From the IMG/VR virus record IMGVR_UViG_3300037466_001520: a DNA stretch of 64,000 nt; one strand, 5' to 3'. This DNA comes from a virus. Its lineage: Duplodnaviria; Heunggongvirae; Uroviricota; Caudoviricetes. Below, piece by piece: positions 7,373 through 35,336 of the stretch; positions within the stretch are counted from its first letter, which is position 1, and the number at the start of each line of letters is the position of its first letter. A program made the translations under genes and the position numbers. The notes beneath the pieces were generated by a model. That model made no database searches. It worked only from the letters and a program-made list of their open reading frames with translations, and was not told where the DNA came from.

Positions 7373-7405
7373 GAGATTATCTCCGAGAGAGAGAGGCAGG
7401 ACGAG

Positions 7406-14811: not shown

Positions 14812-15000
14812 TTGCTACAGGAACTCCCCAACTAGACTTGTAGTAGGACAGTCCCCCGTTGGGTTCTCCCCGGGACCCGGAGCTGGCGGGGGACTGTCCC
14901 TTTCCATTCCAGTGAGCTTACATGGCAGGCCCGACGTCTGACAAATCGGCATGCCAAGAGTGGGTTTAAGGTGCGCCGGAGGAGGGTAACCCTCCTTTTC
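14812..15000 (+). ncRNA. candidate about 190-nt structured RNA
   Basis: TTGCTC(14778)-17-TAGTCT; 13-bp stem 14846-14858/14887-14899; ends in GGAGGGTAACCCTCC+TTTT. Confidence 0.5.
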
Positions 15001-15265
15001 TGCAATTATTGCAAGCTGAGAGTGTCCTCCCAAAAGGAGGGTCACCCTCCTTTTTCAAAAGTTGCAAGCCGAGCACTCCGGCAGCGCTTCATAGGGCCAA
15101 CGCCAAAAGGAGGGTCACCCTCCTTTCTGGAACTCTTGCAAGAATCGCTTCTGGGTCGCTTCTATAGGGGCTTTCCCCAAAGGAGGGTCACCCTCCTTTC
15201 CTGAAAGTTGCAAATGAGACGTTCTGGCGGCGCTCTATAGGGGCTTGGGCTCTCAAAAGTTGCAA
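14980..15265. repeat. 4-unit array of palindromic GGAGGGT(C/A)ACCCTCC + T-tract + TTGCAA, periods 55/73/73
   Basis: cores start at 14981, 15036, 15109, 15182. Confidence 0.85.
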
Positions 15266-15385
15266 GAGTTGAGAAAATACGTCCCCGATTGTTCCAACTA
15301 GCGCTGAACTTGAAACAATCTGACCCCTGACCTTGCAATTCTGCTCGACACTGCGTATGATAGACGAAGAACAGCACGGGAAAGG

Positions 15386-15811
15386 GTGCAAAAGTTGCAA
15401 GATTACCTAGATCTGAGCCTCTGGCGTCAGGTTGACGACGGCGAACACGTCTGGGGTACGCATCTGACAGTGGTGCACAACCCGGATGGCAGCACCCACA
15501 CCTTCCTCAGCACCGACCCCAAGGCGTCCTTCACCTACCACTCCGAGCACTGGATCGCGGACGAGGAGAGCCTCGGACACGAGGTCTACGTGCCCAGACT
15601 GCCTGACACGCGCCCCGGAGCTGTGCTGGAGTTCGATACTGAGGCCGGAGGCGGCTACGCCGTCGCCCAGAACGACGGGCGCTGGAGCCTAGTGCACTTC
15701 TCGGGACGCCCTGCGCTCGCCGGGATCACCACCGAGCAGCTCCTCCGCCAGTTCCCCAGCGAGTTCCGCCTCGCCCTCGGCGGGCGCGACCGCGAGGAGA
15801 CCTCAGCGTGA
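15386..15811 (+). CDS. hypothetical protein
   Basis: TTGCAA-17-TATGAT promoter, AAAGG RBS, GTG start. Confidence 0.6.
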   Translation: MQKLQDYLDLSLWRQVDDGEHVWGTHLTVVHNPDGSTHTFLSTDPKASFTYHSEHWIADEESLGHEVYVPRLPDTRPGAVLEFDTEAGGGYAVAQNDGRWSLVHFSGRPALAGITTEQLLRQFPSEFRLALGGRDREETSA

Positions 15812-16303
15812 GCCTCGACCCCCCGCCCTGCGGGCGAGCTGGCTGGCCTAGCGCTGGCGCTCTGCCTCGCCCTCGTCTTCGTCGCCCTGCTCACGGCCCG
15901 CTAGCCCCAGCAGGTCCCAGCCGGGGTGCCGGTCGCGCCTCAGCCCCAGCTCCGCCCGCTCCGTGCCCGGGGCAGGGCGCAGCCCGAGGCGTGGCCGTGC
16001 CGGGTGGTGGCGTGCGCGGTAGGGCGGGACGCGCCGCACGGGAGCCCACGCGCTCCGGGACTGCCCGGGACGCCGACTCGCGAGCACGGCGAGCACGCCG
16101 AACGCTATCACGCAGGTCGCAAGAAACGCTAGCGTGACAAGTCTCCTTTCTGCCCGGACCTCCCGGGCATACTCCAACGATACACACTTGCCCACCGAGA
16201 ATCAAGCCGAAAATATTTTTGCGCAACGCTTGACAACTGTAGAGCATAGTGCGAAGATTGATTCATCGACGGGGAGATACCCCGACAGACTTAGGAGGTC
16301 ACG

Positions 16304-16609
16304 ATGATCAAGGTTATTTTCGGCGCTCGCGTCACGGATGCTTACGAGACCGTCATGCAGGGCTTCGTGAACCCGGAAAAGCCTTTCGAGCTTCGCTCCG
16401 ACTTTACCCACGTCCCGACCTTCGAGTTCGAGGACATCGACTCGGCTTCGGAATTCGTCGACGACACTCTCGGCGCTACGCATCGCGTGGGACCGGCGCT
16501 CTACGAGGGTGGCATCCTCGAACTGTGGGCCGACGACGAGGACACGGACGACGAGAACGAGGAGACGTGGGAGCGCTTCGCGGTCATCAAGGATCACGAC
16601 GTAGCCTAG
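16304..16609 (+). CDS. acidic hypothetical protein
   Basis: AGGAGG RBS. Confidence 0.75.
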   Translation: MIKVIFGARVTDAYETVMQGFVNPEKPFELRSDFTHVPTFEFEDIDSASEFVDDTLGATHRVGPALYEGGILELWADDEDTDDENEETWERFAVIKDHDVA

Positions 16610-16675
16610 CGCGTTCGCCGGGAGTCTTCGGGCTCCCGGCCCAACTTTGCAAAACTTGCAACTCTAGGAGGAAAC

Positions 16676-16984
16676 ATGGCTAAGGCACTGGGCACTATCT
16701 GGGTATGCGTCGACTGCTACGCCGCGCATCACGGGCTGGAACAGCACGAGACTCCCGACCGGGAGCCGCTGAACCTTATCCCGGACGACTGCGACGTAAC
16801 GTCCGGACTGCTCTACGAGGAGCACGAGGAGGACTGCCTGTTCCACACTCTCGGCCATGACGCGCCGGACGACTACGAGTGCGACTGCGAGCGCATCGAG
16901 TTCAGCAAGTCGCCTTGCGAGGGCTGTGGGTCGCATCTCGCGGGCGAGCGTGAAGCGCTCACACTCTGGGAGCGCGAGGGCTAA
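16676..16984 (+). CDS. Zn-finger protein (CVDC ... CxC ... FSKSPCEGCGS)
   Basis: AGGAGG RBS; paired CxxC. Confidence 0.7.
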   Translation: MAKALGTIWVCVDCYAAHHGLEQHETPDREPLNLIPDDCDVTSGLLYEEHEEDCLFHTLGHDAPDDYECDCERIEFSKSPCEGCGSHLAGEREALTLWEREG

Positions 16985-17224
16985 CGCCGCTGCAAAATTT
17001 GCAAGCCGGGACCGCTGAGCGGTTCCGGCCTTAGGCGTGCCCGCGTTCGGGACCCCCGGGAGGAGCCCAGACTCGGCCTTCCCCCCGACCCCGCTACAGG
17101 GCCGATATCCGCTCGCCGTTGAGCACATAACTAATATCCCACATCCGCGAGTCTTTGTCAACTCTTGCAACTCACTGGAAACTGTGTATCCTAGAACACA
17201 TCACCACTTCCCTAGGAGGACGCA

Positions 17225-17509
17225 ATGACCATTGCAACCGTTGATTACGGCGTCTTGACCGGCTACCCGGAACGCATCGACCCTAGGGAACTGGAAGTGG
17301 GCGACGTGGTTCCTATGGTCACCGAAAACCACATGGTGATGGCTATCCGGCGCTTCGAGGACGATCCTCGCTGGACGGTGCAAGTGACGTGGGAGGACGG
17401 CTCTAGCACGCTCTACAATCAGCGTTGCTTCATCCAGCGACTCGTTCCGGCGCAGGGCTTGCGCAATGCTGAACAACCGTGTATCGTAGAGGTATCAGCA
17501 CAACGGTAG
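17225..17509 (+). CDS. hypothetical protein
   Basis: AGGAGG RBS; C-terminus encoded by the next promoter. Confidence 0.7.
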   Translation: MTIATVDYGVLTGYPERIDPRELEVGDVVPMVTENHMVMAIRRFEDDPRWTVQVTWEDGSSTLYNQRCFIQRLVPAQGLRNAEQPCIVEVSAQR

Positions 17510-17518
17510 GAGGACGCA

Positions 17519-17710
17519 ATGAACGGTTACATCTGCTTCTACAAGGGTCAGCGCACCGAGGTCTACGCGGAGACCACGCTCAAGGCTCAGGACAAGGCGC
17601 GCGAGGAATTCCAGCGCAAGTACCCACGCCGGAAGATCAAGGGCTCTGAGATCAGCGTCAACCTCGCGGAGATCGACGGCGAGACCGTCACGCACACAGC
17701 CGTAGACTGA
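17519..17710 (+). CDS. hypothetical protein ('MNGYICFYKGQRTEVYA')
   Basis: cassette promoter and RBS. Confidence 0.75.
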   Translation: MNGYICFYKGQRTEVYAETTLKAQDKAREEFQRKYPRRKIKGSEISVNLAEIDGETVTHTAVD

Positions 17711-17751
17711 CGCACAATTCTTGCAAGACTTTCAAAACTAGGAGGACCCCC

Positions 17752-17982
17752 ATGGCAAAGACTCCGAAAATCTCCAAGCAAGGTCAGGCAATGCTGGACG
17801 CTCTGAGCTACCTGCTCAGCCTTCCTGACACGTTCCGGCCCGGGATCAACCTTCGGGGCGCAGGACAGTACGCAACGGCGCGAGCGCTCGCTAGGCGCGG
17901 TCTGGTCCAGTACTTCCCCGGAACCGGTCGCATCGAACCTTCGCGCGACATGTACGCGCTAGCATCCGTACTCGGCAAGTAG
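17752..17982 (+). CDS. small basic, winged-helix-like protein
   Basis: AGGAGG RBS; 'TARALARRGLV'. Confidence 0.6.
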   Translation: MAKTPKISKQGQAMLDALSYLLSLPDTFRPGINLRGAGQYATARALARRGLVQYFPGTGRIEPSRDMYALASVLGK

Positions 17983-17991
17983 GAGGATCCC

Positions 17992-18186
17992 ATGGCAGAA
18001 CTTGCAACAATTGCAGAAATCGAGTGCGAGTGCGGGAACCGCGCAGAGCCGGGAGACACCGAGTGCAACTGGTGCGCAGCGGCACGCGCGGAGATCGAAG
18101 AGAACGGCCCGCACGTTGGACACTGGAGCACGTTCGGAACGTACTGGTGCGACACGTGCAACAGCCCGCTCTGCAATCTCATCTAG
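17992..18186 (+). CDS. Cys-rich Zn-binding protein
   Basis: CECG, CNWC, WCDTCNSPLC. Confidence 0.7.
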   Translation: MAELATIAEIECECGNRAEPGDTECNWCAAARAEIEENGPHVGHWSTFGTYWCDTCNSPLCNLI

Positions 18187-18250
18187 AACTTGCGCAACGG
18201 TAGACAACCGTGTAAGCTAAGAACATCAGCAGGGAAACCTAGGAGGAAAC

Positions 18251-18565
18251 ATGGCAAAGCTTGAGATCCGTCCCACCGACTTCGACTCGGCGACTAAGGC
18301 TCTGAACGGTCGCAGCTCGCGCAGGATCGGGAACAACACCGAGCTTCGCAAGACGTCTTGCGGGAACGTCGTCGCCACGCTCCACGGCCACGAGATCGTG
18401 GAGTGGACGCCGGAAGGGACGTACGCGACGTGGGCAGGGTACGCGACGTCAACCACGCGGGACCGACTGAACCAGCTCGCGCCGGGACGATTCAACATCA
18501 AAGACCGCGAACCGCGCTACAACGGTCTCCCGGTCAGCTCGCGCGAGTGGATCCGAGTCGACTGA
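18251..18565 (+). CDS. hypothetical protein ('TLHGHEI...TTRDRLN')
   Basis: cassette promoter and RBS. Confidence 0.75.
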   Translation: MAKLEIRPTDFDSATKALNGRSSRRIGNNTELRKTSCGNVVATLHGHEIVEWTPEGTYATWAGYATSTTRDRLNQLAPGRFNIKDREPRYNGLPVSSREWIRVD

Positions 18566-18584
18566 GAGGAGTTGCAAAATTTGA

Positions 18585-18696
18585 AAGCCGGGACTTCGGT
18601 CCCGGCTTTTCGCGTGCCCGTGATTCCGAGCGGGCTCAGGATGGGTCTTTCCCGCCACCCGTCTCAGGGCGGCTATCATGTTCGCCTTCCGGCTAT
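18585..18696 (-). ncRNA. candidate minus-strand small RNA
   Basis: minus-strand TTGACA(18732)-18-TAGACT(18708); ends at bidirectional terminator 18584-18610. Confidence 0.45.
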
Positions 18697-18831
18697 GCCT
18701 CTAGTCTACCCGCTAAGATACAACCGTGTCAACTCAAAAAGACCAAAAAGTTTTAGAGATCTGGACTTGCGCAACGGTGGACTAGGCACTAGGCTTGAGT
18801 TATCAGCAAGGGAACAACGAAGGAGCACGAC

Positions 18832-19110
18832 ATGGCGAAGATCGAAGACCTCCTGACCGATTCGGCAGAGGGCGGCGCGGCGATTGTCTCCGGGCGATAT
18901 GCCGAGGACGAGAAGCAGCTCGCAGAGAACCCAGTCTTCCAGAGGATCGTGCTGGAGATCCCCCCGGGATACGAGATGGAAGGCTACGACCGGCACAGCT
19001 TCACGATGCTTCTGAACCGCAAGTGCGATAGCGAGGGACTCGACTTCCACTACATCGGCACGCCGCGCAAGGCAATGCGCCGAGTGTGGGAAGCCGTGAA
19101 CCGGCTCTAG
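18832..19110 (+). CDS. hypothetical protein
   Basis: cassette promoter and RBS. Confidence 0.75.
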   Translation: MAKIEDLLTDSAEGGAAIVSGRYAEDEKQLAENPVFQRIVLEIPPGYEMEGYDRHSFTMLLNRKCDSEGLDFHYIGTPRKAMRRVWEAVNRL

Positions 19111-19177
19111 GTTAGAGGCCGGGACTTCGGTCCCGGCCACCATTCTTGCAAGACTTTTAAAAAAAACAGGAGGAACC

Positions 19178-19552
19178 ATGGACTTGAACATCGCTACCGA
19201 ACTTACTCCCGACGATCTGGCCGACGCTTTCCGCAACGCCGAGCCGCAGAGCGAGGAGCGGGACTGGCTCTACAGCATGGCGAGCAGCATCGCGCATATG
19301 GGAGGCGAGGAATTCGACGACGACGACAGCCTAGCCGACGCTATCGAGGCGTTCCCCGGATATCTGGTGTTGGCCGATCCCGCTGTGGTGCGTTCCTACG
19401 CGAACCGGCACGGCATCGTCGATCTGTCAGGCAGCACGGAGCTTTCGGATGCTCTGCACTCGATCTTCATCTGGGAAGCAATCGTCAAGGACATCCGATC
19501 CAAGAACGTGAGCGTGCACTACGGCGAGCGCGAATTCTTCTGGATCAGCTAG
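19178..19552 (+). CDS. acidic hypothetical protein
   Basis: AGGAGG RBS. Confidence 0.75.
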   Translation: MDLNIATELTPDDLADAFRNAEPQSEERDWLYSMASSIAHMGGEEFDDDDSLADAIEAFPGYLVLADPAVVRSYANRHGIVDLSGSTELSDALHSIFIWEAIVKDIRSKNVSVHYGEREFFWIS

Positions 19553-19620
19553 GGGACTTGCGCAACGATAGGCGACCGTGTATCATAGGAGTATCAGCAA
19601 GGCACAACGAGGAGGCAGCA

Positions 19621-20157
19621 ATGGGCGAAGTCCAGTACCACATCGGCGAGACTCTTGACGAGGCACTCAAGGGCGAGACCGAGCAGAGCTTCGATCCGCG
19701 CGAGTTCGGCTACGACGAAGTGGGATTCGTGGACAGCGTCGAGCTGAGCGTGGCCGAGGACGACGACAGCGACACGGGCAAGACCTACATGTTGGCCGCG
19801 ACGTGTTCCGAGGACTTGCGATTCCACCGTGGGCAGTATCCCGAGCTTTTCGAGCCCTTCGAGGACGAGGACGAAGAGCCCGAGCTGACGCAGGAGGCTA
19901 TGAACGCGGTCGAGGCCGTGTTCTCCGAGCAATACTCAGGCATTGATATCTACGGATGCTCTGACGGGTATCTGCGCTTCGAGGTGGCCGTCTTCGAGGG
20001 GCGCGGCGACTTCCCGATTGACGCTCTGGACGAAGGTACGCTCTGGCCGATCATTGCACAGATTGCAAACGAGTCAGATCCCGGGACCTTCGGCTCCGAA
20101 TACATCTGGAACACGGTGGCAAAGCTCGCCCGGGACCTCAAGGAAGACGCCGAGTAG
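19621..20157 (+). CDS. very acidic hypothetical protein
   Basis: cassette promoter and RBS. Confidence 0.75.
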   Translation: MGEVQYHIGETLDEALKGETEQSFDPREFGYDEVGFVDSVELSVAEDDDSDTGKTYMLAATCSEDLRFHRGQYPELFEPFEDEDEEPELTQEAMNAVEAVFSEQYSGIDIYGCSDGYLRFEVAVFEGRGDFPIDALDEGTLWPIIAQIANESDPGTFGSEYIWNTVAKLARDLKEDAE

Positions 20158-20225
20158 TAGTCGAGACGCCGGGGACTTCGGTCCCCGGCCTCAACCTTAC
20201 AAAACTTGCAACTCTAGGAGGAAAC

Positions 20226-20510
20226 ATGGCGCGCTACGGAATCACTGAGGACTACGACTACAACGTCGAGCACAAGCGCAAGCGGCTTCACGTCTGGTCC
20301 GGGCCGTTCTTCCACACCTTCGAGGCCGAGGCATACACCCTGCCAAAGGGTGACGGGTACATGGTCACAACCTACAACGGCGACAAGATCCGCGTAGCTT
20401 GCCCTGCTCCGCGTGATGATCGGAACTACGAGGAAGTAGACAAAGCCATCAGCGAGGCTCTGAACCGTCACCACGAGGAGGCCGGAAGAGTCAAGCTTGC
20501 GCAAGACTAG
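20226..20510 (+). CDS. hypothetical protein
   Basis: AGGAGG RBS. Confidence 0.75.
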   Translation: MARYGITEDYDYNVEHKRKRLHVWSGPFFHTFEAEAYTLPKGDGYMVTTYNGDKIRVACPAPRDDRNYEEVDKAISEALNRHHEEAGRVKLAQD

Positions 20511-20561
20511 GCAACCGTGTATCGTAGGAGTATCAGCAAGGCACGAGGCTAGGAGGCCGAC

Positions 20562-20864
20562 ATGAGCGGTAAGTTCGACAGCGAGCGGGACGAGGCAGTC
20601 TGGTCGATCACTCTGGACGGTGGCTGCGAGACCACGGGCGACTCGGTTGAGTGGTCCCTCTGGGCAGCGAAGGTAGACGTTGACGAGGAATTCATCGACG
20701 GCGAGACCGGCGCGCGAGTGGAGGCCGGATTCTATCTGGTGCTTGAGAACTCGGTGGGAGGCGTGACGGTCTACCGATTCGACGACGCCGCATCGCGGGA
20801 TACCGAGTACGACGACGTAGACCGGGCCTACAGCGAGTGGGCAGGCACCGACGACGAGGAGTGA
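20562..20864 (+). CDS. acidic hypothetical protein ('MSGKFDS')
   Basis: cassette promoter and RBS. Confidence 0.75.
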   Translation: MSGKFDSERDEAVWSITLDGGCETTGDSVEWSLWAAKVDVDEEFIDGETGARVEAGFYLVLENSVGGVTVYRFDDAASRDTEYDDVDRAYSEWAGTDDEE

Positions 20865-20927
20865 GACTGAGCCCGGGACTTCGGTCCCGGGCTTTCTTGC
20901 AAGACTTACAAAAAAGAGGAGGACAGC

Positions 20928-21149
20928 ATGGCAAAGGTAGTGCGAGCAGATCAACTGGTCAAGGGCGACGAGATCGTTTTCTATGGGGAACCGTGGGTAG
21001 TTCTGGAAGCCGTGCCGGATAAAGAGTGGGCATCGAACGCGCTCCAGTGGGAACGACGCATCCGAGTCACGTTCGTCGCCCCGAGATCCGGCGCGAATAA
21101 GGTCTTCATGTTTCTCCCGGATGAGGTCAAGGAAGTAGTGAACCGGTAG
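20928..21149 (+). CDS. small beta-barrel protein ('ADQLVKGD')
   Basis: GAGGAGG RBS. Confidence 0.7.
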   Translation: MAKVVRADQLVKGDEIVFYGEPWVVLEAVPDKEWASNALQWERRIRVTFVAPRSGANKVFMFLPDEVKEVVNR

Positions 21150-21215
21150 GACTTGCGCAACGGTGGGCGAGTGTGTAAGCTAGAGGTATCAGCAAGGGAA
21201 ACCTAGGAGGATCCA

Positions 21216-21848
21216 ATGAGCGAAACGATGAACTGGGACGACAACGACGAAGTTCTCACCGACTCCCGCTACCCGGATTTCCGCGCAACCGTGGTGCGCG
21301 ACGAGTACCCGGACGCTCCGGACTGGGACTTGCAGGCAGCCGTGATCCGTATCGAGTACGGATACTCCCGGCGCTACGTCGAGGGTATGAATCCCGAGGG
21401 GAAGAACTTCGAGGACAAGCTCGAAGAATTCATGAACCGTAGCGGGCGAGGCGTCTGGGCAGATCTTGAAATGTTTGCAAGATACCTTCGGATCTTCCAC
21501 GGGACCAGCGACTTCCGGCAGTTCCACAGCTACAGCTATCAGGACAGCACGGTCTACGTGGCTTTCGACTCCGCAGCAATGGTCAAAGAGTGGGGATGCA
21601 CCGAGACTCCCGACGAGGCCGCGAAGGGCACAGCCGACGAGTGGCAGGCCTACATCGACGGCGACGTCTACGTTATCCAGATCGAACGGCGCGAGCAGGA
21701 GACGCGCACGCGCACGTTCAAGGGCTCCGAGGTCTTCCGTAGCGAGCGGGAGGTTTGGACCATTCAGGAGACGGTGGGAGGCTACTACGGCGAGGAGTAC
21801 GCGAGGAGCGAGGCCGAGGAGCAGTTGAGCTACTACGCCGAGGCGTGA
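21216..21848 (+). CDS. hypothetical protein ('AYIDGDVY...VGGYYG')
   Basis: cassette promoter and RBS. Confidence 0.75.
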   Translation: MSETMNWDDNDEVLTDSRYPDFRATVVRDEYPDAPDWDLQAAVIRIEYGYSRRYVEGMNPEGKNFEDKLEEFMNRSGRGVWADLEMFARYLRIFHGTSDFRQFHSYSYQDSTVYVAFDSAAMVKEWGCTETPDEAAKGTADEWQAYIDGDVYVIQIERREQETRTRTFKGSEVFRSEREVWTIQETVGGYYGEEYARSEAEEQLSYYAEA

Positions 21849-21974
21849 CGGTGGCAAGGGAGACCGGGCTTCGGCCCGGTCTTTCTTGCAAGAAAAACAA
21901 TTCGCCCTAGGGCTTGCGCAACGGTAGACACTAGGCTAAGCTAGAGGTATCAGCAAGGAACCGAGGAGGACACC

Positions 21975-22298
21975 ATGAGCTATGATCCCCGTGACGACGA
22001 GCCGTTCGAAACGGCGAAGGACCCCGCATTCGAACTGTTCAACATCGAATCCGAATTCGGCGTCGAGAACGTCGAGGCCGTCGTCGAGGTCATCGTCAAC
22101 GTCTACGGCGAGCGCTGGGAGGACGACGACGAGCAGAAGGCGATCCGAGTCCTGTGTATGGCTTTCGAAGGCTATGCTCCGCGCACCATTCGGAAGTACG
22201 CCGCTAGCAACGCTCCCGGCTACGAGTATCCCGAGCTGGACAGCTTGGCCGGGAACGCTCTGATTGAAGCCGGTCTGATTGATCCCGTAGACCACTAG
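21975..22298 (+). CDS. acidic hypothetical protein
   Basis: cassette promoter and RBS. Confidence 0.75.
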   Translation: MSYDPRDDEPFETAKDPAFELFNIESEFGVENVEAVVEVIVNVYGERWEDDDEQKAIRVLCMAFEGYAPRTIRKYAASNAPGYEYPELDSLAGNALIEAGLIDPVDH

Positions 22299-22385
22299 CG
22301 AGGAGGGCGAGGGACTTCGGTCCCTCGCCTACTTGCGCAACGGTGGACAACCGTGTAAGCTGAGAATACCGACGAAGGGAGACAG

Positions 22386-22931
22386 ATGGGCAATCTTGCA
22401 GGCGTTATCTTTGTGGGCGGACTGGTGGCCGTGGGCGGATTCGTCATGAACGGGCAGCATCCGGCAGTAGCGGGCGACTCTCCGGCGCAGGCGCAGGGCG
22501 AGCAGGCACTAGCCAAGAACCGCGAGGCGACCGATCCCGTCCCTCTTGCAGGCATGGGCAGCGATCCCGGCGCAACGGAGACCGCTCCGACTCACACCGA
22601 CTTCTCATATCCCGACGTGCCAGATCTAGCCGACCCCGAGAACCAGATCCCGGGAGACGCAGGGACCTACGATCCGAACGATCCGGCGAACGTCCCGAAC
22701 CCGGCGCAGACCAAAACTGCAAAAGTTGCAAAGCAGCCGAAGCAGAGCAAGACCTCGACGACACCGACCCCGAAGGCGACGAAGCAGCCGAAGCAGACTC
22801 AGCCGAAGACTACGACGGCGACGAGTGCCACGACGGCGACCGGCTCAACGTCGAACATGCCAACGACCATGCCGAGCACGCCGACAGCTCCGCACGCCGT
22901 AGCGCACGTGGGCAAGGTCAAACCAGTCTAG
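22386..22931 (+). CDS. membrane-anchored Pro/Thr-rich protein
   Basis: N-terminal hydrophobic segment, low-complexity P/T/K tail. Confidence 0.65.
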   Translation: MGNLAGVIFVGGLVAVGGFVMNGQHPAVAGDSPAQAQGEQALAKNREATDPVPLAGMGSDPGATETAPTHTDFSYPDVPDLADPENQIPGDAGTYDPNDPANVPNPAQTKTAKVAKQPKQSKTSTTPTPKATKQPKQTQPKTTTATSATTATGSTSNMPTTMPSTPTAPHAVAHVGKVKPV

Positions 22932-23032
22932 GCGATCTGGCGGGCTTGCAGAACTTGCAGGCCCGCCACACTTGCGCAACGGTGTAAGACCGTGTAAGCT
23001 AGAGGTATCAGCAAGGGACCGAGGAGGAAACC

Positions 23033-23425
23033 ATGAAGCGACCTAAGGGCTACAGCATCACGAGCCGAGCGAACCACGACCGCTGGCGGGACGATCCGCA
23101 GTGGGCCGAGATGGACAAGTGGACCGTGACGCTCAAGAATCCGCAGGGCAAGACGCTTTCGACGCAGTTCTGGAAGGGCTCTGGGCACAACGGCGCGAAG
23201 CCGACCTTCGAGGAAGTTGTGGAAGCGCTTATCTCGGACGGGCAGGCCTACGACAATTCCGCAGACTTCCGCGACTTCTGCGCCGAGTTTGGCTATGACC
23301 TCGACTCCGACAAGAAAGACCGGGACCGGTACTACAAGATCTACAAGGCGTGCGCGAGCATGTCTCCCAAGATCCGAGCATTTCTGGGCGAGGACTACGA
23401 CAAGCTAGCGTACGACGAGGACTAG
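23033..23425 (+). CDS. hypothetical protein ('DFCAEFGYDLDS...KIYKAC')
   Basis: cassette promoter and RBS. Confidence 0.75.
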   Translation: MKRPKGYSITSRANHDRWRDDPQWAEMDKWTVTLKNPQGKTLSTQFWKGSGHNGAKPTFEEVVEALISDGQAYDNSADFRDFCAEFGYDLDSDKKDRDRYYKIYKACASMSPKIRAFLGEDYDKLAYDED

Positions 23426-23536
23426 CAGCGAGGCCGGGAGAAATCCCGGCCTCAACTTTTGCAAGACTTACAGACTTGCGCAACGCTGGGCAACCGTGTA
23501 AGCTTGAGTTATCAGCAGGGAAACGAGGAGGAAACC

Positions 23537-24145
23537 ATGAGCGATTACGACATCCCCGAGCGACTCGAAGAACTTCGCGCCGAGCTTCGCGCCGAGCGTA
23601 TCAGCTACGGCGAGCTTGCCGAGCTGCAAGATCTGGTCGAGCACATCGACCGCGACGACGTGGAGTTGCTGGAAGCCGCAGGCGTGCCCGAGCATCGGTT
23701 CACGAAAGAACAGCTCGAAGATCTGCTCAACGTGGAGACCGTGCTCCAGCACTACCGTATCGCGCAGATCTGGACCGGGCTGGCCGAATATCCGGACGAC
23801 GGCGAGCACACCATGGCGATTGACGAGGCCATCGAAGATCCGTACTCGATGGATCTGGGCGAGGAGATCAACTCCCGGATGCTCGAAGACGTTCGCAATT
23901 TTTGCAACGCTATCCGGCCAATCCTCGCACGGGCCGAGGTTCCCGAGGACGGCGAGAACCTGACAGCCGAGCAGATCGGGCATGACTTCTCGCTCACGCG
24001 GAACCACCACGGCGCAGGATTCTGGGACCGTGGCTGGGGCGAGCTGGGCGACGAACTGACCGACGCAGCGCAGAGCATGGGAGGCGCAGCGCTCAGCGCG
24101 TACCGTGAGGATGAGGCCGATAGCTGGCACTTCACGATGGAGTAG
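23537..24145 (+). CDS. two-domain hypothetical protein ('ERISYGELAEL' + 'GHDFSLTRNHHGAGFWDR')
   Basis: cassette promoter and RBS. Confidence 0.75.
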   Translation: MSDYDIPERLEELRAELRAERISYGELAELQDLVEHIDRDDVELLEAAGVPEHRFTKEQLEDLLNVETVLQHYRIAQIWTGLAEYPDDGEHTMAIDEAIEDPYSMDLGEEINSRMLEDVRNFCNAIRPILARAEVPEDGENLTAEQIGHDFSLTRNHHGAGFWDRGWGELGDELTDAAQSMGGAALSAYREDEADSWHFTME

Positions 24146-24256
24146 GGAGAATGGCGGGACTTCGGTCCCGCCAAACTTTTTTGGATTCGGTGTTGCGCAA
24201 CGGTGGACAGTAGGCTAAGCTAGATACATCAGCAGGGAACAACCGAGGAGGCCGCG

Positions 24257-24547
24257 ATGAGCGAAGCGAACGTCAAGCGAGTTACCGAGATCGTCGAAGC
24301 GCTCGCGAAGGAACTGGGCGCGAAGCCGGACGCCGACCTCAAGCGTCTCGCCCGTCAGCTCGCCGTGGATCTGGGAGTGACGCCGAGCCGTCAGCCGGGA
24401 GCGAAGCTCACTCCGGCGAAGGTGCGCAACATCCGGAAGCTTCACGCCGAGGGCTGGAAGCAGAACGCGCTCGCCGACAAGTACGGCGTGACGGGTCCGG
24501 CGATCAACGCAATCGTCCACCGACGCACATGGGCCGAGGTCGACTAG
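24257..24547 (+). CDS. HTH DNA-binding protein
   Basis: 'LTPAKVRNIRKL..EGWKQNALADKYGVTGPAINAIVHRRTW'. Confidence 0.7.
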   Translation: MSEANVKRVTEIVEALAKELGAKPDADLKRLARQLAVDLGVTPSRQPGAKLTPAKVRNIRKLHAEGWKQNALADKYGVTGPAINAIVHRRTWAEVD

Positions 24548-24614
24548 GCAGGCTGGCCGGGGACTTCGGTCCCCGGCTTCAATTCTTGCAAGACTTTCAA
24601 ATCAGGAGGACAGC

Positions 24615-24875
24615 ATGGCACAGTATCCGCACGTAGCATCCGCCAACGATATCCGCGAGCTGAACGGAACCGATGCCGCTTTCGTGGTGGCGAAGACCTC
24701 GCTAGGCAGCACACCGTCTGAGGTGTCGGTCTATTGGGAGGACGTGGAGAACAGCGAGGGCGACATGATTCCCACACTCATGATCTACATCGAGGGCAAG
24801 GGTGTAGACGTCATGATTACCCACCACGACGAACTGGTTTACACATACGCCTACGATTGGCTTGCGCAACGGTAA
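24615..24875 (+). CDS. hypothetical protein
   Basis: AGGAGG RBS. Confidence 0.7.
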   Translation: MAQYPHVASANDIRELNGTDAAFVVAKTSLGSTPSEVSVYWEDVENSEGDMIPTLMIYIEGKGVDVMITHHDELVYTYAYDWLAQR

Positions 24876-24927
24876 TCAACCGTGTAAGCTAGGAACATCA
24901 GCAAGGGAAACAACCGAGGAGGACCAA

Positions 24928-25347
24928 ATGGCCGAACTTAGCTTCATCAACGGAACCCCGGACAGCATCAACATCCAGCAGCTTATCGACGGCGCTCGCG
25001 AAATCTCTGACATCCTCGCGGACGACGACGAGGTCGAGCCCTACGACTCCGACACCATCGAGAATGCCCGCGAGGATCTGAAATCCTTGCAGGAAATCCT
25101 TGCCGAGCTGGGCTACAGCGTCGAGACTCCCGAGGAGGTCGTGGACGCGCTCGGATCGGTAGGGCGCGAGACGTCCGGCGAATTCATCGAAGAGGGGCAG
25201 CTCGAACAGGTTGCCCGGAACCGCTACGAGGACGAGAACTGGTCAAGCATCATCAGCTCCAACATCAACTGGCAGGGTGTCGTGGACGACATGACCGAAG
25301 GCGTCTACGAGATGACGATCAACAACGGCACCTACTACGACGCCTGA
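24928..25347 (+). CDS. acidic protein, possibly ArdA-like DNA mimic
   Basis: D/E-rich; C-terminal 'INWQGVVDDM...Y...NNGTYY' resembles ArdA-type tails (recalled, not searched). Confidence 0.45.
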   Translation: MAELSFINGTPDSINIQQLIDGAREISDILADDDEVEPYDSDTIENAREDLKSLQEILAELGYSVETPEEVVDALGSVGRETSGEFIEEGQLEQVARNRYEDENWSSIISSNINWQGVVDDMTEGVYEMTINNGTYYDA

Positions 25348-25456
25348 GACGGACGGGGCGAGCCGGGAAACCGGCTCGCTCAGCCTGTAGCAGAGTTGCC
25401 AAGTGTCAACCGTTGCGCTACGCTAAGACCAAGAGATCCGAACAGGGGAGGAACCA

Positions 25457-26185
25457 ATGAGCGATACCGAGAACACCACGCCGAGCCGAGGCCGCAAGGC
25501 TGTAGCCATAGCGGGAGGCACGTTCGCCGTGCTGGCCGTCCTTGCAATCTTTGCAACCAACGACATCGTGGGCGCAGCAACCAAGAGCGCGAGCCCGAGT
25601 CCGAGCCCGTCGCGCATCGTCACCACGGCGAAGCCGCTTGACGTGGCAACGGCGAAGCCGACCGAGACGGCGAAGCCGACCCCCACCCCGACCGCAACCG
25701 TGACGCCGAGCGATCTTCCGACCGAGCAGCCGCAGGCGCAGGCCGATGAGCCGCTCGCCGAAACTGCAAAAGTTGCAACTCCGGCGAAGCCGTACGTTCC
25801 CTGCTCTGCTGTCGGTCTGGTGGCCGACGTCAACGGAGTGTGTCATGAGCCCGCGAAGCCTCAGACCGTGACGCAGCCGCAGGCTCCGAAGGCTGTCAGC
25901 GCCGTACCGTGCGAGGAAGATCAACCGTGCTGGGACTGCAAGGTCATGGGCAACGGCATTTGTGGCCCGACCACCACGCCGACTGTGCAGGCTCCGACGT
26001 GCAACGCTCCGGCAGGCTGGGCACTCAAGGCTATGCAGCTCTGGAAGGACGCATACGGCAACCGTGCGATGGACCCGTCATACATCCACATCGAGTGCAA
26101 CGGAACGCAGGAGGCTGGCTACATCAAGATTGCCGATCCGAGCAACCCGGGCATTTGGTACACCTACATGAACTACGCCGTCTAG
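25457..26185 (+). CDS. membrane-anchored Pro/Thr-rich protein with Cys-containing C-terminal domain
   Basis: N-terminal TM, PT linker, 'PCEEDQPCWDCKVMGNGICG'. Confidence 0.7.
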   Translation: MSDTENTTPSRGRKAVAIAGGTFAVLAVLAIFATNDIVGAATKSASPSPSPSRIVTTAKPLDVATAKPTETAKPTPTPTATVTPSDLPTEQPQAQADEPLAETAKVATPAKPYVPCSAVGLVADVNGVCHEPAKPQTVTQPQAPKAVSAVPCEEDQPCWDCKVMGNGICGPTTTPTVQAPTCNAPAGWALKAMQLWKDAYGNRAMDPSYIHIECNGTQEAGYIKIADPSNPGIWYTYMNYAV

Positions 26186-26219
26186 CAAATCTTGCAAGAA
26201 TTCAGGAGGACCGAGCAGC

Positions 26220-26534
26220 ATGACTAAGACCGCAACGAAGGACGAGACCGAGCTAATCGACGAGACGCTCAAGCATCTGGCCGAGGCACTCGACGTGAAG
26301 CTACTGGCCGAGACGCGCAAGCGACTGGTCAAGCAGGTCACGAAGGCCTTTTACCCGCAGCCTACCGACAAGGTGAAGCGCCAGAAGATCACGCGATCCG
26401 AGGTCGAACTGATCAAGGCAGAGTACGAGCAGATGGTAGCCGAGGGCAATCCGAGCATGGCGAGGTTGGGCGCGAAGTGGGGAATCACCGCATCGACAGT
26501 CTCCCGTTACGTCAATAAAACTTTGCAAGCCTGA
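26220..26534 (+). CDS. HTH DNA-binding protein
   Basis: 'SMARLGAKWGITASTVSRYVNK'. Confidence 0.65.
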   Translation: MTKTATKDETELIDETLKHLAEALDVKLLAETRKRLVKQVTKAFYPQPTDKVKRQKITRSEVELIKAEYEQMVAEGNPSMARLGAKWGITASTVSRYVNKTLQA

Positions 26535-26595
26535 CTTGCGCAACGGTGGCAAGGTGTGTAAGCTTGAGTTATCAGCAGGGAACAAGGAGGAAACC

Positions 26596-26976
26596 ATGAG
26601 CCAAGCAACCGCCAGCCACGACCTAGCAACCCGGATCTTCTGGAACAACTGGGAGGCCGCGCGCGACACGCAGGCACAGTGGGACGAGATGGCGCGCGAA
26701 TGCGCCGAGCAGGGTTTCCGGCCCGAGTACTGCATTCACGGGACCTACATGTGGGTTGAGTGGGACTGCGCGTGCGGGCTCTGCGAGCAGGGCGAGCCGC
26801 TGTGGGATGACGCTCGCGATTGGGACGCAGCGAAGCGCAAGGCAGCGGCGATCCTCGAAGCCGTGGAGCAGCGCCGGAAGCTGACGCTGGAATTCGTGAA
26901 GCTCGATCCGAGGAACTGCGATATCCGCGAGGCTCTGGTGGACTGGTCACTGGAACCGCTCAGGTCTGTGAAGTAG
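26596..26976 (+). CDS. Cys/His-rich hypothetical protein
   Basis: 'YCIHG...DCACGLCE'. Confidence 0.7.
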   Translation: MSQATASHDLATRIFWNNWEAARDTQAQWDEMARECAEQGFRPEYCIHGTYMWVEWDCACGLCEQGEPLWDDARDWDAAKRKAAAILEAVEQRRKLTLEFVKLDPRNCDIREALVDWSLEPLRSVK

Positions 26977-27080
26977 CGAAGGGCGAGCCGGAAACGGCTC
27001 GCCTTTTCTTTCTGCCTATGGTTGCGCAACGGTGGCAGACCGTGTAGGCTTAGAGTATCAACAAGGACAGAGGAGGAAAC

Positions 27081-27434
27081 ATGGCTTATCCGAAGAACTA
27101 CCGGGAGCTTCACGGTGGCGACGAGATCACCATCGACGACCAATACCGGGGCGAGTGCGAAGTCCTAGTGCAATTCGTGCAAGTCTCGGAGGACGGCGAG
27201 AACGTCTACATCCAAGGACGCTACATTGCGGACGATGGATCGGTCGACGAGCTGGCAGACGTCACGATCCCTAGGCCGTACGAGGATCCTCAAGACATGT
27301 TTACCCCGCAGCTCGTGCGGGAATTCGCGGCATTCAAAGTGGGGGACGCGATAGGCGGACTGCCTACAGCCCGCGACCGCGAGCGACTTGACCAGATCGT
27401 CCGGGAGCTCCGCAGCCGGAACGTACTCGACTAG
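27081..27434 (+). CDS. hypothetical protein
   Basis: cassette promoter and RBS. Confidence 0.75.
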   Translation: MAYPKNYRELHGGDEITIDDQYRGECEVLVQFVQVSEDGENVYIQGRYIADDGSVDELADVTIPRPYEDPQDMFTPQLVREFAAFKVGDAIGGLPTARDRERLDQIVRELRSRNVLD

Positions 27435-27454
27435 CAAGGAACGAGGAGGAAACA

Positions 27455-27721
27455 ATGAGCACATTCAATGCAGGCGACAAGGTGGAGATCAAGGAACGCG
27501 GCGAGTGGATCGGGCCGTATACCGTAACGGATATGAAGGGGCGGACCCCCGATCATCTGGTCCTCGAAGGGAAGCACGGCTACTTCGAGCAGTACAACGA
27601 CGCGCCTTACAACGTGCGACTGGCTGAGCCCGAGGATGAGCAGGAGCGCAACGACCGGCGCGTGAGCGAGCACGAGGAGTGGCTCGGAACCGAGGGAGCA
27701 GATCACCTGTTCGGCGAGTGA
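27455..27721 (+). CDS. SH3-like hypothetical protein
   Basis: GAGGAGG RBS; 'FNAGDKVEI'. Confidence 0.7.
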   Translation: MSTFNAGDKVEIKERGEWIGPYTVTDMKGRTPDHLVLEGKHGYFEQYNDAPYNVRLAEPEDEQERNDRRVSEHEEWLGTEGADHLFGE

Positions 27722-27794
27722 TCGGAGCGGGTTGGCTGGGCTTGCAAGTTTTGCAAGTCCGGCAATCTCGAACCGAACGACTTAGGAGGAACCA

Positions 27795-28226
27795 ATGGCA
27801 GATCAACTGCAAGCCGCCTTCACTCGCTGGCTGGACGCGCTGCGCGAGGAACGCGCAACGGACCATGGCTGGCTGACCGTGGCAGGTCTTCTGGAACAGC
27901 TAGCCGAGTACCCGGCTGAGTGGAAGCTGACCTGCGACGTCGCCGAGCGTCCCGTGGCCGTGTCCTACGCTCACAGCTACCGAGGCTACTACGCCGAGCT
28001 TGCCTTTGAACCGGCAGGCTGGGAGCTGGGCACGGTGGACGACTTCATGGAAGAGCTTAGCGAGGCAATCGGTTCGACCTACGAGGGCTGGAAGGGTGGC
28101 GAGTTTACGATGGGGCTGGATACTCACGTCTTCCTTGCCTACGAGGGTACGACGGGCCGACCTGTGACGGGAGTTGCAGGAAATACAGCCGAGCAGATGG
28201 TAATCCTTACGACTTCTGAGGACTAG
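27795..28226 (+). CDS. hypothetical protein ('HSYRGYYAELAFEP...GWKGGEF')
   Basis: AGGAGG RBS. Confidence 0.75.
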   Translation: MADQLQAAFTRWLDALREERATDHGWLTVAGLLEQLAEYPAEWKLTCDVAERPVAVSYAHSYRGYYAELAFEPAGWELGTVDDFMEELSEAIGSTYEGWKGGEFTMGLDTHVFLAYEGTTGRPVTGVAGNTAEQMVILTTSED

Positions 28227-28235
28227 GGGAGAAGA

Positions 28236-28424
28236 ATGGCGAAGCTGTCAGGCTGGTGCATGCGTCCGGACGAGGCGCAGCATCGGCTGTGCCGGAAGAA
28301 CTTCACGTCCGGCGCGTGCGAGTGCGAATGCAGTCACGAGGGCGAGCGTCCGTTGCCCGAGGCAGTGCGGGAACTGGGCACGAGGCCGCAGGGACGACGC
28401 AAGAAAACAGTTGACACCGAGTGA
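28236..28424 (+). CDS. small Cys-rich protein
   Basis: WC...H..C...CECECSH. Confidence 0.6.
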   Translation: MAKLSGWCMRPDEAQHRLCRKNFTSGACECECSHEGERPLPEAVRELGTRPQGRRKKTVDTE

Positions 28425-28501
28425 ATCGGTGTGTATGATAAGAGTACAAAGAAACCCAGAGCACGAAAGGCTCCGAACATAAGACAAGGCAAGTGATTAG
28501 G

Positions 28502-28726
28502 ATGAGCATCAAGGCGCAGATCGCAGCGAAGTATCTCGACGAGGCAACCGAGACAGTCAAGAGGCTGTACCCGGCAACCGCTGAGCCGCAGATCGCCGCA
28601 GGTATTGCGCTGAGCACATCCACCCACCTGACCTCGCTCGGATCCGAGGACGATTCTGCAATTCTTGAGAAGATCGTCCACGCCGCGCAGTTCGTCTACC
28701 CCGAGTATTTTCTCCCGGCAGAGTAG
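28502..28726 (+). CDS. hypothetical protein
   Basis: TTGACA-17-TATGAT promoter near 28411. Confidence 0.6.
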   Translation: MSIKAQIAAKYLDEATETVKRLYPATAEPQIAAGIALSTSTHLTSLGSEDDSAILEKIVHAAQFVYPEYFLPAE

Positions 28727-28786
28727 TTGACAACTGTAGATGATAACGGTAGACTCTAGGTATCAGCTCGAAGGAAAGAGGGAAAC

Positions 28787-28981
28787 ATGACCTACGCTCC
28801 GATCCCCAGCACGGCAACCCGCAAGCGTCTCCGGATGGAAGAAAGGCGCGAGCGACTGGCTCAGCGCAAGGAACGGCTGAACCTCTGGCTGGAGACGGGA
28901 GCAGGGCAGGCAACGCTTGTCGGAATCCTGCTCGTTGTCCTGCTTGTCGGATCGCGGATCTCTGGGATTGTCGGGAACTGA
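28787..28981 (+). CDS. small membrane protein
   Basis: C-terminal TM; promoter near 28727. Confidence 0.65.
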   Translation: MTYAPIPSTATRKRLRMEERRERLAQRKERLNLWLETGAGQATLVGILLVVLLVGSRISGIVGN

Positions 28982-34779: not shown

Positions 34780-34784
34780 TGCCT

Positions 34785-35126: not shown

Positions 35127-35129
35127 ACG

Positions 35130-35336
35130 CTAGCGAGCCCTGCGCAGCTTGCGATAGGCCTCAGGTGCCAGTCTGCGAGCATCGCGAGCGCTGAGCCCCA
35201 CCACTTCCAGAATGTGACGCTCAGCCACGCGGCGAGCCCTGCGAGCCTTTAGCTCAGCCCGGACAATCTGAGCCAAAATTGTTAGCGGGATTAGAATTGT
35301 GCCGATGGAAATTACAATGGCGATAATGCTCTGCAT
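35130..35336 (-). CDS. small membrane protein
   Basis: N-terminal TM, basic tail. Confidence 0.6.
   Translation of the reverse strand: MQSIIAIVISIGTILIPLTILAQIVRAELKARRARRVAERHILEVVGLSARDARRLAPEAYRKLRRAR

Follow-up and report, generated by a model that had tools for sequence, protein, structure and literature searches.

The region described here holds about 30 small genes over about 13 kb, whose junctions are built from three repeated control modules: a promoter with its leader, a putative hairpin terminator, and an AT-rich box. We think it likely that this is an early array of portable modules in which cassettes are exchanged by homologous recombination at the modules themselves. The array lies in a metagenome contig from an uncultured large actinobacterial phage (Caudoviricetes; IMGVR_UViG_3300037466_001520), presumed lytic, and is probably an early stretch of its genome. 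All coordinates are positions in the 64,000-nt stretch analysed, called the window. In the feature list promoters and terminators are predicted from the sequence, P denotes a putative TTGCGC-N17-TADNNT promoter site, and L013 and L042 are related phages known from partial contigs, so that "absent" means absent at that position only.

15386-15811, plus strand: left-border gene (JGI gene calls), with counterparts in L013 and L042.
15848-16195, minus strand: left-border gene (JGI gene calls), with counterparts in L013 and L042.
16219-16642, plus: first unit, in which TTGCGCAA precedes a TTGACA hexamer by 11 bp (uncertain -10) and gene 16304-16609 and a UUCG hairpin follow; gene common to L013, locally absent from L042.
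16647-16984, plus: gene 16676-16984 led by a TTGCAA-N3-TTGCAA box and SD; 88% identical (aa) to its L042 counterpart, with none at this place in L013.
16985-17224, no strand: non-coding spacer of 240 nt, 83-84% nt identity in both relatives; it bears a minus-strand TTGACA promoter-like site.
17225-17509, plus: gene with SD but without a recognised own promoter; its 3' end is overlapped by the following P.
17459-18186, plus: P 17459-17487 and leader, followed by genes 17519-17710, 17752-17982 (box-led) and 17992-18186 (coupled).
18190-18609, plus: P 18190-18218, gene 18251-18565 (53% aa identity to Atuin gp21), box, UUCG terminator with 11-bp stem.
18610-18766, no strand: second conserved non-coding spacer, 87% nt identity to L013; it has a minus-strand TTGACA-N18-TAGACT site.
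18767-19138, plus: complete cassette of P 18767-18795, leader, gene 18832-19110 and terminator 19117-19138.
19146-19552, plus: gene 19178-19552 behind a terminator/box/SD junction, without its own promoter.
19558-20189, plus: P 19558-19586, gene 19621-20157, terminator 20168-20189; the best-conserved backbone gene (69-70% aa in both relatives).
20197-20510, plus: box-led slot with gene 20226-20510; L013 (59 aa) and L042 (106 aa) each have an unrelated gene here.
20497-20893, plus: P 20497-20525, overlapping the preceding stop codon, gene 20562-20864, terminator 20870-20893.
20897-21149, plus: box-led gene 20928-21149; its L042 homolog (68% aa) has a different relative position, upstream of the 19621 homolog.
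21153-21882, plus: P 21153-21181, gene 21216-21848, GGGC-UUCG-GCCC terminator, which also stands at the L013 ortholog.
21914-22329, plus: fully self-contained cassette of P, gene 21975-22298 and terminator; present in L042, missing between the flanking orthologs in L013.
22333-22970, plus: P 22333-22361 with an atypical leader common to the L013 ortholog, gene 22386-22931; the gene contains an in-frame box and its product is Pro/Thr-rich.
22972-23453, plus: P 22972-23000, gene 23033-23425 (phrog_4273), terminator; homologous to Atuin gp10 and to gene 18, the extra gene of Racecar.
23459-24173, plus: box directly upstream of P 23476-23504, gene 23537-24145, terminator; phrog_1915 domain.
24193-24577, plus: P 24193-24221, gene 24257-24547 (weak HTH match), terminator 24556-24577.
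24586-24875, plus: box-led gene 24615-24875, 58% nt identity to L042.
24862-25379, plus: P 24862-24890, gene 24928-25347, terminator 25358-25379; apparently a recently exchanged cassette.
25397-26534, plus: variant promoter TTGCCA-N17-TACGCT, genes 25457-26185 (two in-frame boxes) and 26220-26534 (weak HTH match).
26536-27003, plus: P 26536-26564, gene 26596-26976, GAAA-loop terminator.
27022-28424, plus: last P 27022-27050, leader variant ATCAACA, then four genes starting at 27081, 27455 (coupled), 27795 (box-led) and 28236 (coupled).
28411-28981, plus: right border, with near-consensus promoter TTGACA-N17-TATGAT at 28411, gene 28493-28726, promoter TTGACA-N17-TAGACT at 28727 with the same TATCAGC leader, and gene 28787-28981.

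The P site occurs 14 times between 17459 and 27050, always on the plus strand, where 0.14 sites are expected by chance in the whole window and none of 100 shuffles reached 14. All 14 sites are co-oriented with the genes, lie 53-66 nt before an ATG, and have a non-consensus -35. Behind 12 of them an ATCAGCA leader follows at a fixed distance of 6 nt (the exceptions are 22333 and 27022), and the predicted 5' UTRs, of 25-31 nt, begin at about this leader (AUCAGCA) and end in AGGAGG. In 23 of the 30 genes AGGAGG stands no further than 15 nt from the start codon, three more have a 5-mer core of it, and all genes except one start with ATG (29/30). The initial annotation had described the promoters with their 17-nt spacing and the leader, together with AGGAGG-type ribosome-binding sites, seven GGGAC-UUCG-GUCCC terminators and TTGCAA at many junctions, and every countable detail was confirmed. 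The promoter pattern was nevertheless drawn too short, as the conserved unit spans about 66 nt with spacer positions included. In 38 units from three phages, positions outside the search pattern are kept at 100% (A7 and T11), 89% (A17), 92-97% (G20-T21-G22) and 82-97% (leader TATCAGC).

The hairpin motif GGGACTTCGGTCCC is found seven times on the plus strand and its reverse complement not once, and this orientation of the loop (7 TTCG, 0 CGAA) argues for a role at the RNA level. Twelve hairpins in all have GC stems of 9-11 bp closed by UUCG or GNRA-type tetraloops, with folding energies of -19 to -25.5 kcal/mol; to judge by their form they would act as terminators or attenuators. Six or seven of the 12 lie directly upstream of a P site, as separate modules that do not overlap the promoter. 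The AT-rich TTGCAAGACTTTCAAAA box lies about 29 nt before the next start codon, and of the 45 TTGCAA sites in the window 32 fall in 15000-27800, where a composition-based estimate predicts about 2.

These modules are combined in a recurring order of promoter, gene A, terminator/box, gene B and next promoter, and junction lengths are stereotyped at about 64-68 nt or 101-126 nt. Some 15 genes are preceded by a promoter of their own, and about seven have both promoter and terminator; eight have a terminator/box/SD junction only and three are translationally coupled. The description of the array as self-contained cassettes thus holds for about a quarter of the genes and fails for the rest. The contents behind these near-identical boundaries are unrelated, as had been proposed: when all of the roughly 30 ORFan genes were compared, no pair of proteins was alike at E<=1e-3. 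Pfam has no family for 28 of the 30 proteins, their PHROG matches are all of function unknown, and neither a hint of function nor homology to characterised proteins came from Pfam, PHROGs or the ESM Atlas. Their GC3 is 0.79, as against 0.86-0.87 in the flanks.

According to the model we favour, host RNA polymerase would transcribe these genes rightward from sigma-70-type promoters of the form TTGCGC(AA)-N17-TAnnnT, in which further positions are conserved and whose transcripts would open with the fixed leader. The highly stable hairpins with UUCG or GNRA tetraloops would then serve as terminators or attenuators, the TTGCAAGACTTTCAAAA box would supply their U-rich tail, and only read-through would express the B genes behind them. 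With the same modules at nearly every junction, single genes could be swapped by homologous recombination from module to module, inside one genome or between co-infecting relatives.

Comparison with the two partial relatives argues for such exchange. L013 and L042 use the same three modules, with 11 P sites in 9.2 kb and 13 in 20.5 kb, respectively, and the proteins they have in common with the window are only 30-94% identical. Between colinear shared genes of the three phages, other genes have been inserted, deleted, replaced or moved: the place of one window gene is taken by seven genes in L013, two box-led slots are filled with unrelated genes, and two cassettes sit at shifted relative positions. 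Order and content are therefore not invariant among relatives; invariance was the result that the initial annotation had named as speaking against its reading. Homology blocks start 0-5 nt from the 5' edge of a P site or terminator and stop no more than 8 nt from the next ATG, although the aligner runs homology through any look-alike junction, so that breakpoints can be placed in or next to a module and not to the nucleotide. Exchange boundaries thus coincide with promoter, leader, terminator and box modules, as was expected of the repeated boundaries. One case is gene 24928-25347, which has 94% nt identity to L042 without gaps between neighbours of 58% and 44-47%, with the identity switching inside the P-leader unit and at the terminator; an L042-type phage (L043) is also present in the sample from which the window's contig came. 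Identical promoters are joined to different leaders and genes at three pairs of non-orthologous sites, where about 0.05 are expected. Five near-identical assemblies of the window's phage show no cassette variation, so exchange appears infrequent at strain level.

The closest deposited relatives are Arthrobacter phages of about 193 kb, Mimi (MN234211), Racecar (MN234206), Talia1610 (PQ559666) and Atuin (OK040794), whose major capsid protein is 64% identical (aa) to that of the window and which have the same synteny from PRTase/NAMPT to portal, giant ORF, protease and MCP. At their left end they too have arrays of 30-35 rightward small genes, beginning about 3.6 kb from the genome end in Mimi and Atuin, with a stereotyped junction of AT-rich box, promoter, conserved leader and AGGAGG. 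Their TTGAC-type -35 hexamer differs from P in sitting in the loop of a stem, and their leader reads ACTACCAAC. Only eight array genes are common with the window, in shuffled order and some on the other strand. Among three arrays of this sister clade there is a single indel larger than 25 bp, and it is a whole cassette, the only one by which Racecar and Mimi differ, with the junction repeat at its bounds. The 76-nt stretch that flanks it can be aligned to either junction, a hallmark of homologous exchange. We found no paper on these Arthrobacter phage arrays.

The P sites need not be plain host sigma-A early promoters. TTGCGC matches the TTGACA consensus at three of six positions, a generic promoter scan misses these sites and finds TTGACA-N17 promoters at 14637, 28411, 28727 and 30345, and near-consensus promoters flank the array; P might thus depend on a phage factor and represent a later class (delayed-early or middle, or one subject to shut-off). 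A phage DNA-binding protein would then read the TTGCGCAA palindrome together with the spacer positions, about 15 promoters would be switched together, and the real immediate-early promoters would be those of the TTGACA type at the edges. Every one of the 18 TTGCGCAA sites in the window accompanies a promoter (about 0.8 sites expected from composition): 14 form the -35 of P, and four precede a TTGACA hexamer by 10-11 bp, one helical turn. The retention of A7, T11, A17 and GTG across three phages, the TTGAC-type hexamers at equivalent sister-clade junctions and the two HTH matches (24257-24547 and 26220-26534) point the same way. However, seven of the 13 P sites in L042 read TTGCGCGA or TTGCGCTA, so P sites can do without the palindrome, and the weak 5-bp inverted repeat in the spacer of some P sites (ACGGT/ACCGT) shows no covariation in the sequences compared. 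Both HTH candidates fall below the Pfam threshold and neither is present in both L013 and L042, and actinobacterial -35 elements are in any case loosely conserved. Such a factor is possible, though host-type promoters seem the better reading; it would fit cassette exchange and alter the regulatory class only. We rate as quite improbable the further idea that the TTGCAAGACTTTCAAAA box works as a promoter in its own right, of a second temporal class and recognised by a modified host polymerase, which would give box-led genes independent timing. These genes have no other promoter, the box holds a position of +26 to +32 from the ATG at about 17 junctions in three phages, and a related AT-rich box heads the sister-clade junction; but no TAnnnT lies at a suitable distance, the SD follows immediately, and neither a sigma factor nor a T7-type or other phage RNA polymerase is recognisable in Mimi or Atuin. 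The TTGCAA-N3-TTGCAA sites are moreover palindromic and occur also inside coding sequence, which fits a DNA-binding site better.

More directly opposed to exchange at the modules is the classical mosaic or "moron accretion" view, by which the repeats are regulatory signals and not recombination substrates, and cassette differences come from random illegitimate recombination followed by selection for intact genes. Gene-edge boundaries are general in phages and are also expected from such selection, the exact tracts usable for recombination are short (15-29 nt), and gene 23537 is rearranged internally, its L042 counterpart being split and reordered. The similarity of variable promoter positions, 0.64 at orthologous and 0.61 at non-orthologous sites, is what strong functional constraint would also give. 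We nevertheless hold this view unlikely in light of the stereotyped junction lengths with no foreign sequence left at exchange points, the 76-nt stretch of the Racecar/Mimi indel, the far-above-chance joining of identical promoters to different leaders, and the 94% block with both ends inside modules. Exact tracts common to two junctions reach 29 nt, those of coding interiors at most 13 nt. Very improbable indeed is a true integron-like system with a dedicated recombinase acting on the hairpins. Unrelated single-gene, cassette-sized units with repeated hairpin boundaries invite that analogy, but no recombinase or integrase family is matched by the 30 array proteins or the large ORFs scanned, the hairpins are perfect GC stems with tetraloops and not attC-like imperfect repeats, and about half of the genes carry their own promoter where integron cassettes are promoterless and rely on a common Pc. 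General homologous recombination best explains the exchange.

The idea of integron-like swapping without an integrase, which the initial annotation had put forward, is supported as regards cassette exchange but is not new, being the model proposed for the promoter-early stem-loops (PeSLs) of the T4-type phages RB49/phi1, T4/PST and KVP40/nt-1 (Arbiol et al. 2010, PMC2839356; Comeau et al. 2014, PMC4122927), whose authors draw the integron comparison themselves (PMC2839356). PeSLs are a functional class and not a sequence family. In both systems a repeated sigma-70-like promoter motif (here 14 sites at 17-nt spacing), a stem-loop that in the present array is a putative terminator or attenuator, and an SD occupy intergenic spaces, with an AT-rich element near the promoter. 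In both, the region is ORFan-rich and plastic (here by Pfam, PHROGs and GC3), and it is at the motifs that related phages differ by indels and replacements, as with L013 and L042 and with Racecar and Mimi. The present array belongs to an unrelated phage lineage and host phylum and has other motif sequences; its strong hairpin is separate from the promoter, it alternates promoter junctions with promoterless ones, and it adds a conserved transcript-initial leader. Promoter and terminator activity and mini-circles were demonstrated experimentally for PeSLs (PMC2839356, PMC4122927), whereas the array is known from sequence. A second parallel is the host-takeover module of Bacillus phage SPO1, with about 26 small early genes in the terminal redundancy, with strong promoters and ribosome-binding sites in many short operons, several of whose products shut off host functions (Stewart et al. 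1998; summarised in PMC6873191). The likeness to this cluster is at the level of sequence features, and cassette exchange at junction repeats is not known from SPO1. A host-takeover or anti-defence role and immediate-early timing are suggested for the array only by analogy.

The array is thus a further, clean case of a design known from T4-like phages and not a new kind of system. In this phage, recombination between its modules would delete, insert, replace or move single genes, each of which would be left correctly wired.

The counts given for the array in the initial annotation were all reproduced. The predicted promoter TTGCGC-N17-TADNNT occurs at 14 plus-strand sites between 17459 and 27050, against a chance expectation of 0.14 across the whole window. 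Twelve of the 14 are followed, at a constant distance of 6 nt, by the leader motif ATCAGCA, which by its position would form the first 7-8 nt of the transcript. The motif GGGACTTCGGTCCC is present in seven plus-strand copies and none in the opposite orientation, and 32 of the 45 TTGCAA sites in the window fall within 15.0-27.8 kb. A repeat finder recovered a promoter unit of ~66 nt (12 copies), a 34-nt unit made of the AT-rich TTGCAA-type box and the Shine-Dalgarno (SD) sequence (8 copies), and the terminator family. Gene calling by ribosome binding site and GC3 gave 30 rightward genes at 16304-28981, here named by start coordinate; 29 of these start with ATG and 23 carry an exact AGGAGG. No resemblance between array proteins was found in an all-vs-all comparison, and Pfam, PHROGs and ESM Atlas gave no functional assignment for any cassette protein. 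Genes 24257-24547 and 26220-26534 are weak helix-turn-helix (HTH) candidates.

The hairpins of the array have folding energies of -19 to -25.5 kcal/mol, and their loops read TTCG seven times and CGAA never, which argues that they act in RNA. The box begins with TTCTTG at its 5' edge, which supplies the preceding hairpin with its U-rich tail, and at about 17 junctions in three phages the box lies 26-32 nt upstream of the ATG. Double sites of the TTGCAA-N3-TTGCAA type also occur within array coding sequences (18002-18016, 22717-22731, 25542-25556 and 25764-25778), so boxes of this family are not confined to junctions. The array is flanked by near-consensus TTGACA-N17 promoters, situated at 14637, 28411, 28727 and 30345. 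Since a TATCAGC leader is found on some TTGACA-type promoters as well (1700, 28727 and, on the minus strand, 32031), the leader counts as an independent module. No leader-complementary sites suggesting a regulatory antisense RNA were found, the sole extra matches being further promoter-leader units. These modules are combined in five ways.

Classes of junction preceding the rightward array genes
Terminator, TTGCGC promoter, leader, SD: genes 18832, 21975, 22386, 23537, 24257 and 27081; a variant promoter precedes 25457
TTGCGC promoter overlapping the end of the previous gene, leader, SD: genes 17519, 18251, 19621, 20562, 21216, 23033, 24928 and 26596
Terminator, box, SD, without promoter: genes 16676, 19178, 20226, 20928 and 24615
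Box, SD: genes 17752, 26220 and 27795
Direct coupling: genes 17992, 27455 and 28236

Given these five classes, the description of the genes as self-contained cassettes fits about a quarter of them. In a frequent arrangement, a promoter is followed by gene A, a terminator/box, gene B and then the next promoter.

The window, a metagenome contig, comes from a large phage, and a 153-kb JGI contig matches it at 99.995% identity. Among deposited phages, its nearest relatives are Mimi, Racecar, Talia1610 and Atuin, ~193-kb phages of Arthrobacter globiformis, whose capsid protein is 64% identical and whose genes run in the same order from the NAD genes as far as that for the capsid; GC content and these relatives suggest an actinobacterial host. 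Downstream of the array lie a PRPP-synthetase-like gene, NAMPT, a metallophosphatase, the portal, a 2628-aa ORF, a protease and the major capsid protein. The 2628-aa ORF (46834-54720), which immediately follows the portal gene, matches no Pfam or PHROG family; its syntenic counterpart is Atuin gp71 (3113 aa), annotated 'DNA helicase'. A near-identity DNA search of the array against deposited phages gave no match, and a distant search gave short single-gene matches only. The exact promoter patterns were absent from IMG/VR and the stringent pattern from JGI metagenome contigs; a looser pattern had 21 hits in JGI contigs, all rejected as single chance matches without other modules. Closer relatives in IMG/VR comprise only capsid-gene fragments of 5-7 kb.

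Two diverged relatives carrying the same modules, both partial contigs, were reached through single genes: L013 (9.2 kb) through a homolog search with gene 21216 and L042 (20.5 kb) through gene 19621. L013-type phage comes from sample SRR33230190 and L042-type phage from sample 3300038443; the sample of L042 also yields a capsid-gene fragment 78% identical to that of the window. L013 has 11 TTGCGC promoters and L042 has 13, with leader, hairpin type and box as in the window. In the 38 promoter units, conservation is nearly complete even at positions that the search pattern left free (A7 and T11 100%, A17 89%, G20-T21-G22 92-97%). The proteins are 30-94% identical, so conservation is stronger in the regulatory modules than in the genes they serve. 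Eight further contigs (L012, L014 and L036-L041) hold homologs of gene 21216 in unrelated, tightly packed phage contexts without this grammar, which shows that the gene travels; for breakpoint mapping they were of no use. A 4.1-kb contig of the L042 type (L043, JGI 3300037312) comes from the same metagenome sample as the window's contig, so that both phages had the opportunity for co-infection and recombination.

The initial annotation had proposed that cassettes are swapped, and in keeping with this their order and content are not invariant among relatives, differing in L013, L042 and the Arthrobacter phages. Seven genes are colinear with their L013 counterparts, 15 have counterparts in L042, and the intervening content differs. 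Seven L013 genes occupy the place of one window gene, six window genes occupy that of three L013 genes, and at two box-led slots each phage has an unrelated gene. Cassette 21975, between 21216 and 22386 in the window, is missing between their L013 orthologs. The homolog of gene 20928 precedes that of 19621 in L042, and the L042 counterpart of L013 gene 6761 lies five genes further on. Among five near-identical assemblies of the window phage no cassette variation was found. Gene 23537 (23537-24145) appears rearranged in L042 (14024-14963), where the phrog_1915 domain from its C-terminus forms a gene of its own upstream, its N-terminal ~50 aa stand at the start of another gene downstream, and a TTGCGC promoter lies between the two parts; ~100 nt of this domain are 75-85% identical in Mycobacterium, Gordonia and even Klebsiella phages.

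Blocks of DNA homology start 0-5 nt from the 5' edge of a promoter or terminator and end at most 8 nt from the next ATG. Selection alone would also give boundaries at gene edges. The longest shared exact tracts reach 29 nt at junctions and at most 13 nt in coding interiors. All junctions look alike, so crossover points can be placed only in or next to a module. In the clearest case, the coding sequence 24928-25347 is 94% identical to L042 without gaps, and its neighbours are 58% and 44-47% identical; identity rises inside the promoter-leader unit and drops at the terminator. One cassette has clearly been exchanged recently between phages of the same sample. Promoter and leader, moreover, are decoupled: promoters at orthologous sites resemble each other no more than those at non-orthologous sites do (similarity 0.64 versus 0.61), and three promoter pairs (~0.05 expected) are identical at all 20 variable positions while having different leaders and genes.

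The Arthrobacter sister clade has a different junction repeat, in which an AT-rich box is followed by a stem that encloses a TTGAC-type -35, then by a -10, the leader ACTACCAAC and AGGAGG. The sole indel above 25 bp among the arrays of Mimi, Racecar and Talia1610 is one whole cassette, Racecar gene 18, whose flanks can be aligned with both junctions over 76 nt; the gene is homologous to window gene 23033 and Atuin gp10. Only eight window array genes have homologs in sister-clade arrays, where their order is shuffled and some lie on the opposite strand; colinearity holds for the genes immediately beyond the array. The ParB-like gene at the flank of the sister-clade arrays has no homolog in the window. 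In the Mimi group an 11-bp stem abutting the -10 carries the -35 hexamer in its loop (L002 8760-8860; L003 8840-8930 and 9315-9400), a promoter-overlapping arrangement typical of the promoter-early stem-loops (PeSLs) of T4-type phages.

No sigma factor or T7-type polymerase was recognisable in the Mimi and Atuin genomes, which is consistent with transcription by the host polymerase. TTGCGC resembles TTGACA only poorly, and all 18 TTGCGCAA palindromes of the window are promoter-associated, four of them one helical turn upstream of a TTGACA hexamer; this could mean that a phage factor controls the TTGCGC promoters. We consider such control doubtful, because seven of the 13 L042 sites lack the palindrome. 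An ECF-sigma promoter was rejected for its wrong spacing, and a dyad operator in the spacer (ACGGT-N5-ACCGT) because L042 variants show no covariation. One may speculate further that a two-site code read by phage DNA-binding proteins governs the array. According to this speculation, which we judge improbable as a whole, the first site would be TTGCGCAA, placed as the -35 or one helical turn upstream of TTGACA, plus the conserved spacer positions, and the second the related TTGCAA-N3-TTGCAA / TTGCAAGACTTTCAA box. Some 15 promoters and 10 terminator-proximal junctions would be activated or shut off jointly, and the mRNAs concerned would share a post-transcriptional fate, for which their conserved AUCAGCA 5' end would be the mark. 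If true, large actinobacteriophages would have a coordinated early-to-middle switch of a kind not yet described in them.

A search of 13-34 kb of the window against Rfam returned nothing credible. Several other elements were observed.

Other repeats and non-coding elements
14973-15213: at the left border of the array, a ~73-bp unit of hairpin (AAGGAGGGTCACCCTCCTT) and then TTGCAA site, present four times in tandem
16985-17224 and 18610-18766: non-coding spacers within the array, 83-87% conserved at the nucleotide level in relatives, each with a minus-strand TTGACA promoter-like site directed at a bidirectional-looking hairpin; small RNAs of ~100-120 nt in antisense orientation could be encoded there, and neither spacer matches Rfam
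7320-7385 and 8301-8366: two-copy unit of TTGCGC, 16 nt and a near-identical ~35-nt stretch starting GGACTACTGTATATCTT; it may represent another class of promoter or the start of a small RNA
34780-34880 and 35050-35150, minus strand: two-copy unit of TTGCGCAACRC, TTGACA, a 27-nt perfect palindrome, then TTAGAT; its spacer is longer than a normal promoter would allow

The array reveals no new mechanism. PeSLs, promoter/stem-loop/SD motifs that recur in ORFan-rich regions, bring about modular shuffling (PMC2839356, PMC4122927), and their authors already liken them to integrons (PMC2839356). The array works alike, its own traits being separate promoter-leader and terminator-box modules and the alternating A/B layout; in its overall layout the array also resembles the SPO1 host-takeover module (PMC6873191). 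Without integrase, attC or common promoter, it is not an integron. What it adds is an extension of the PeSL principle, by which portable promoter/terminator modules wire small accessory genes and act as exchange seams, from T4-like phages, which have Gram-negative hosts, to a large phage lineage whose hosts are high-GC Gram-positive bacteria. The comparative evidence is unusually clean, one regulatory grammar being common to three phages. The finding yields a defined set of predicted promoter, leader and terminator for Arthrobacter-type hosts, and ~30 individually wired ORFans, several mobile between phages, as candidates for host-interaction and anti-defence screens.
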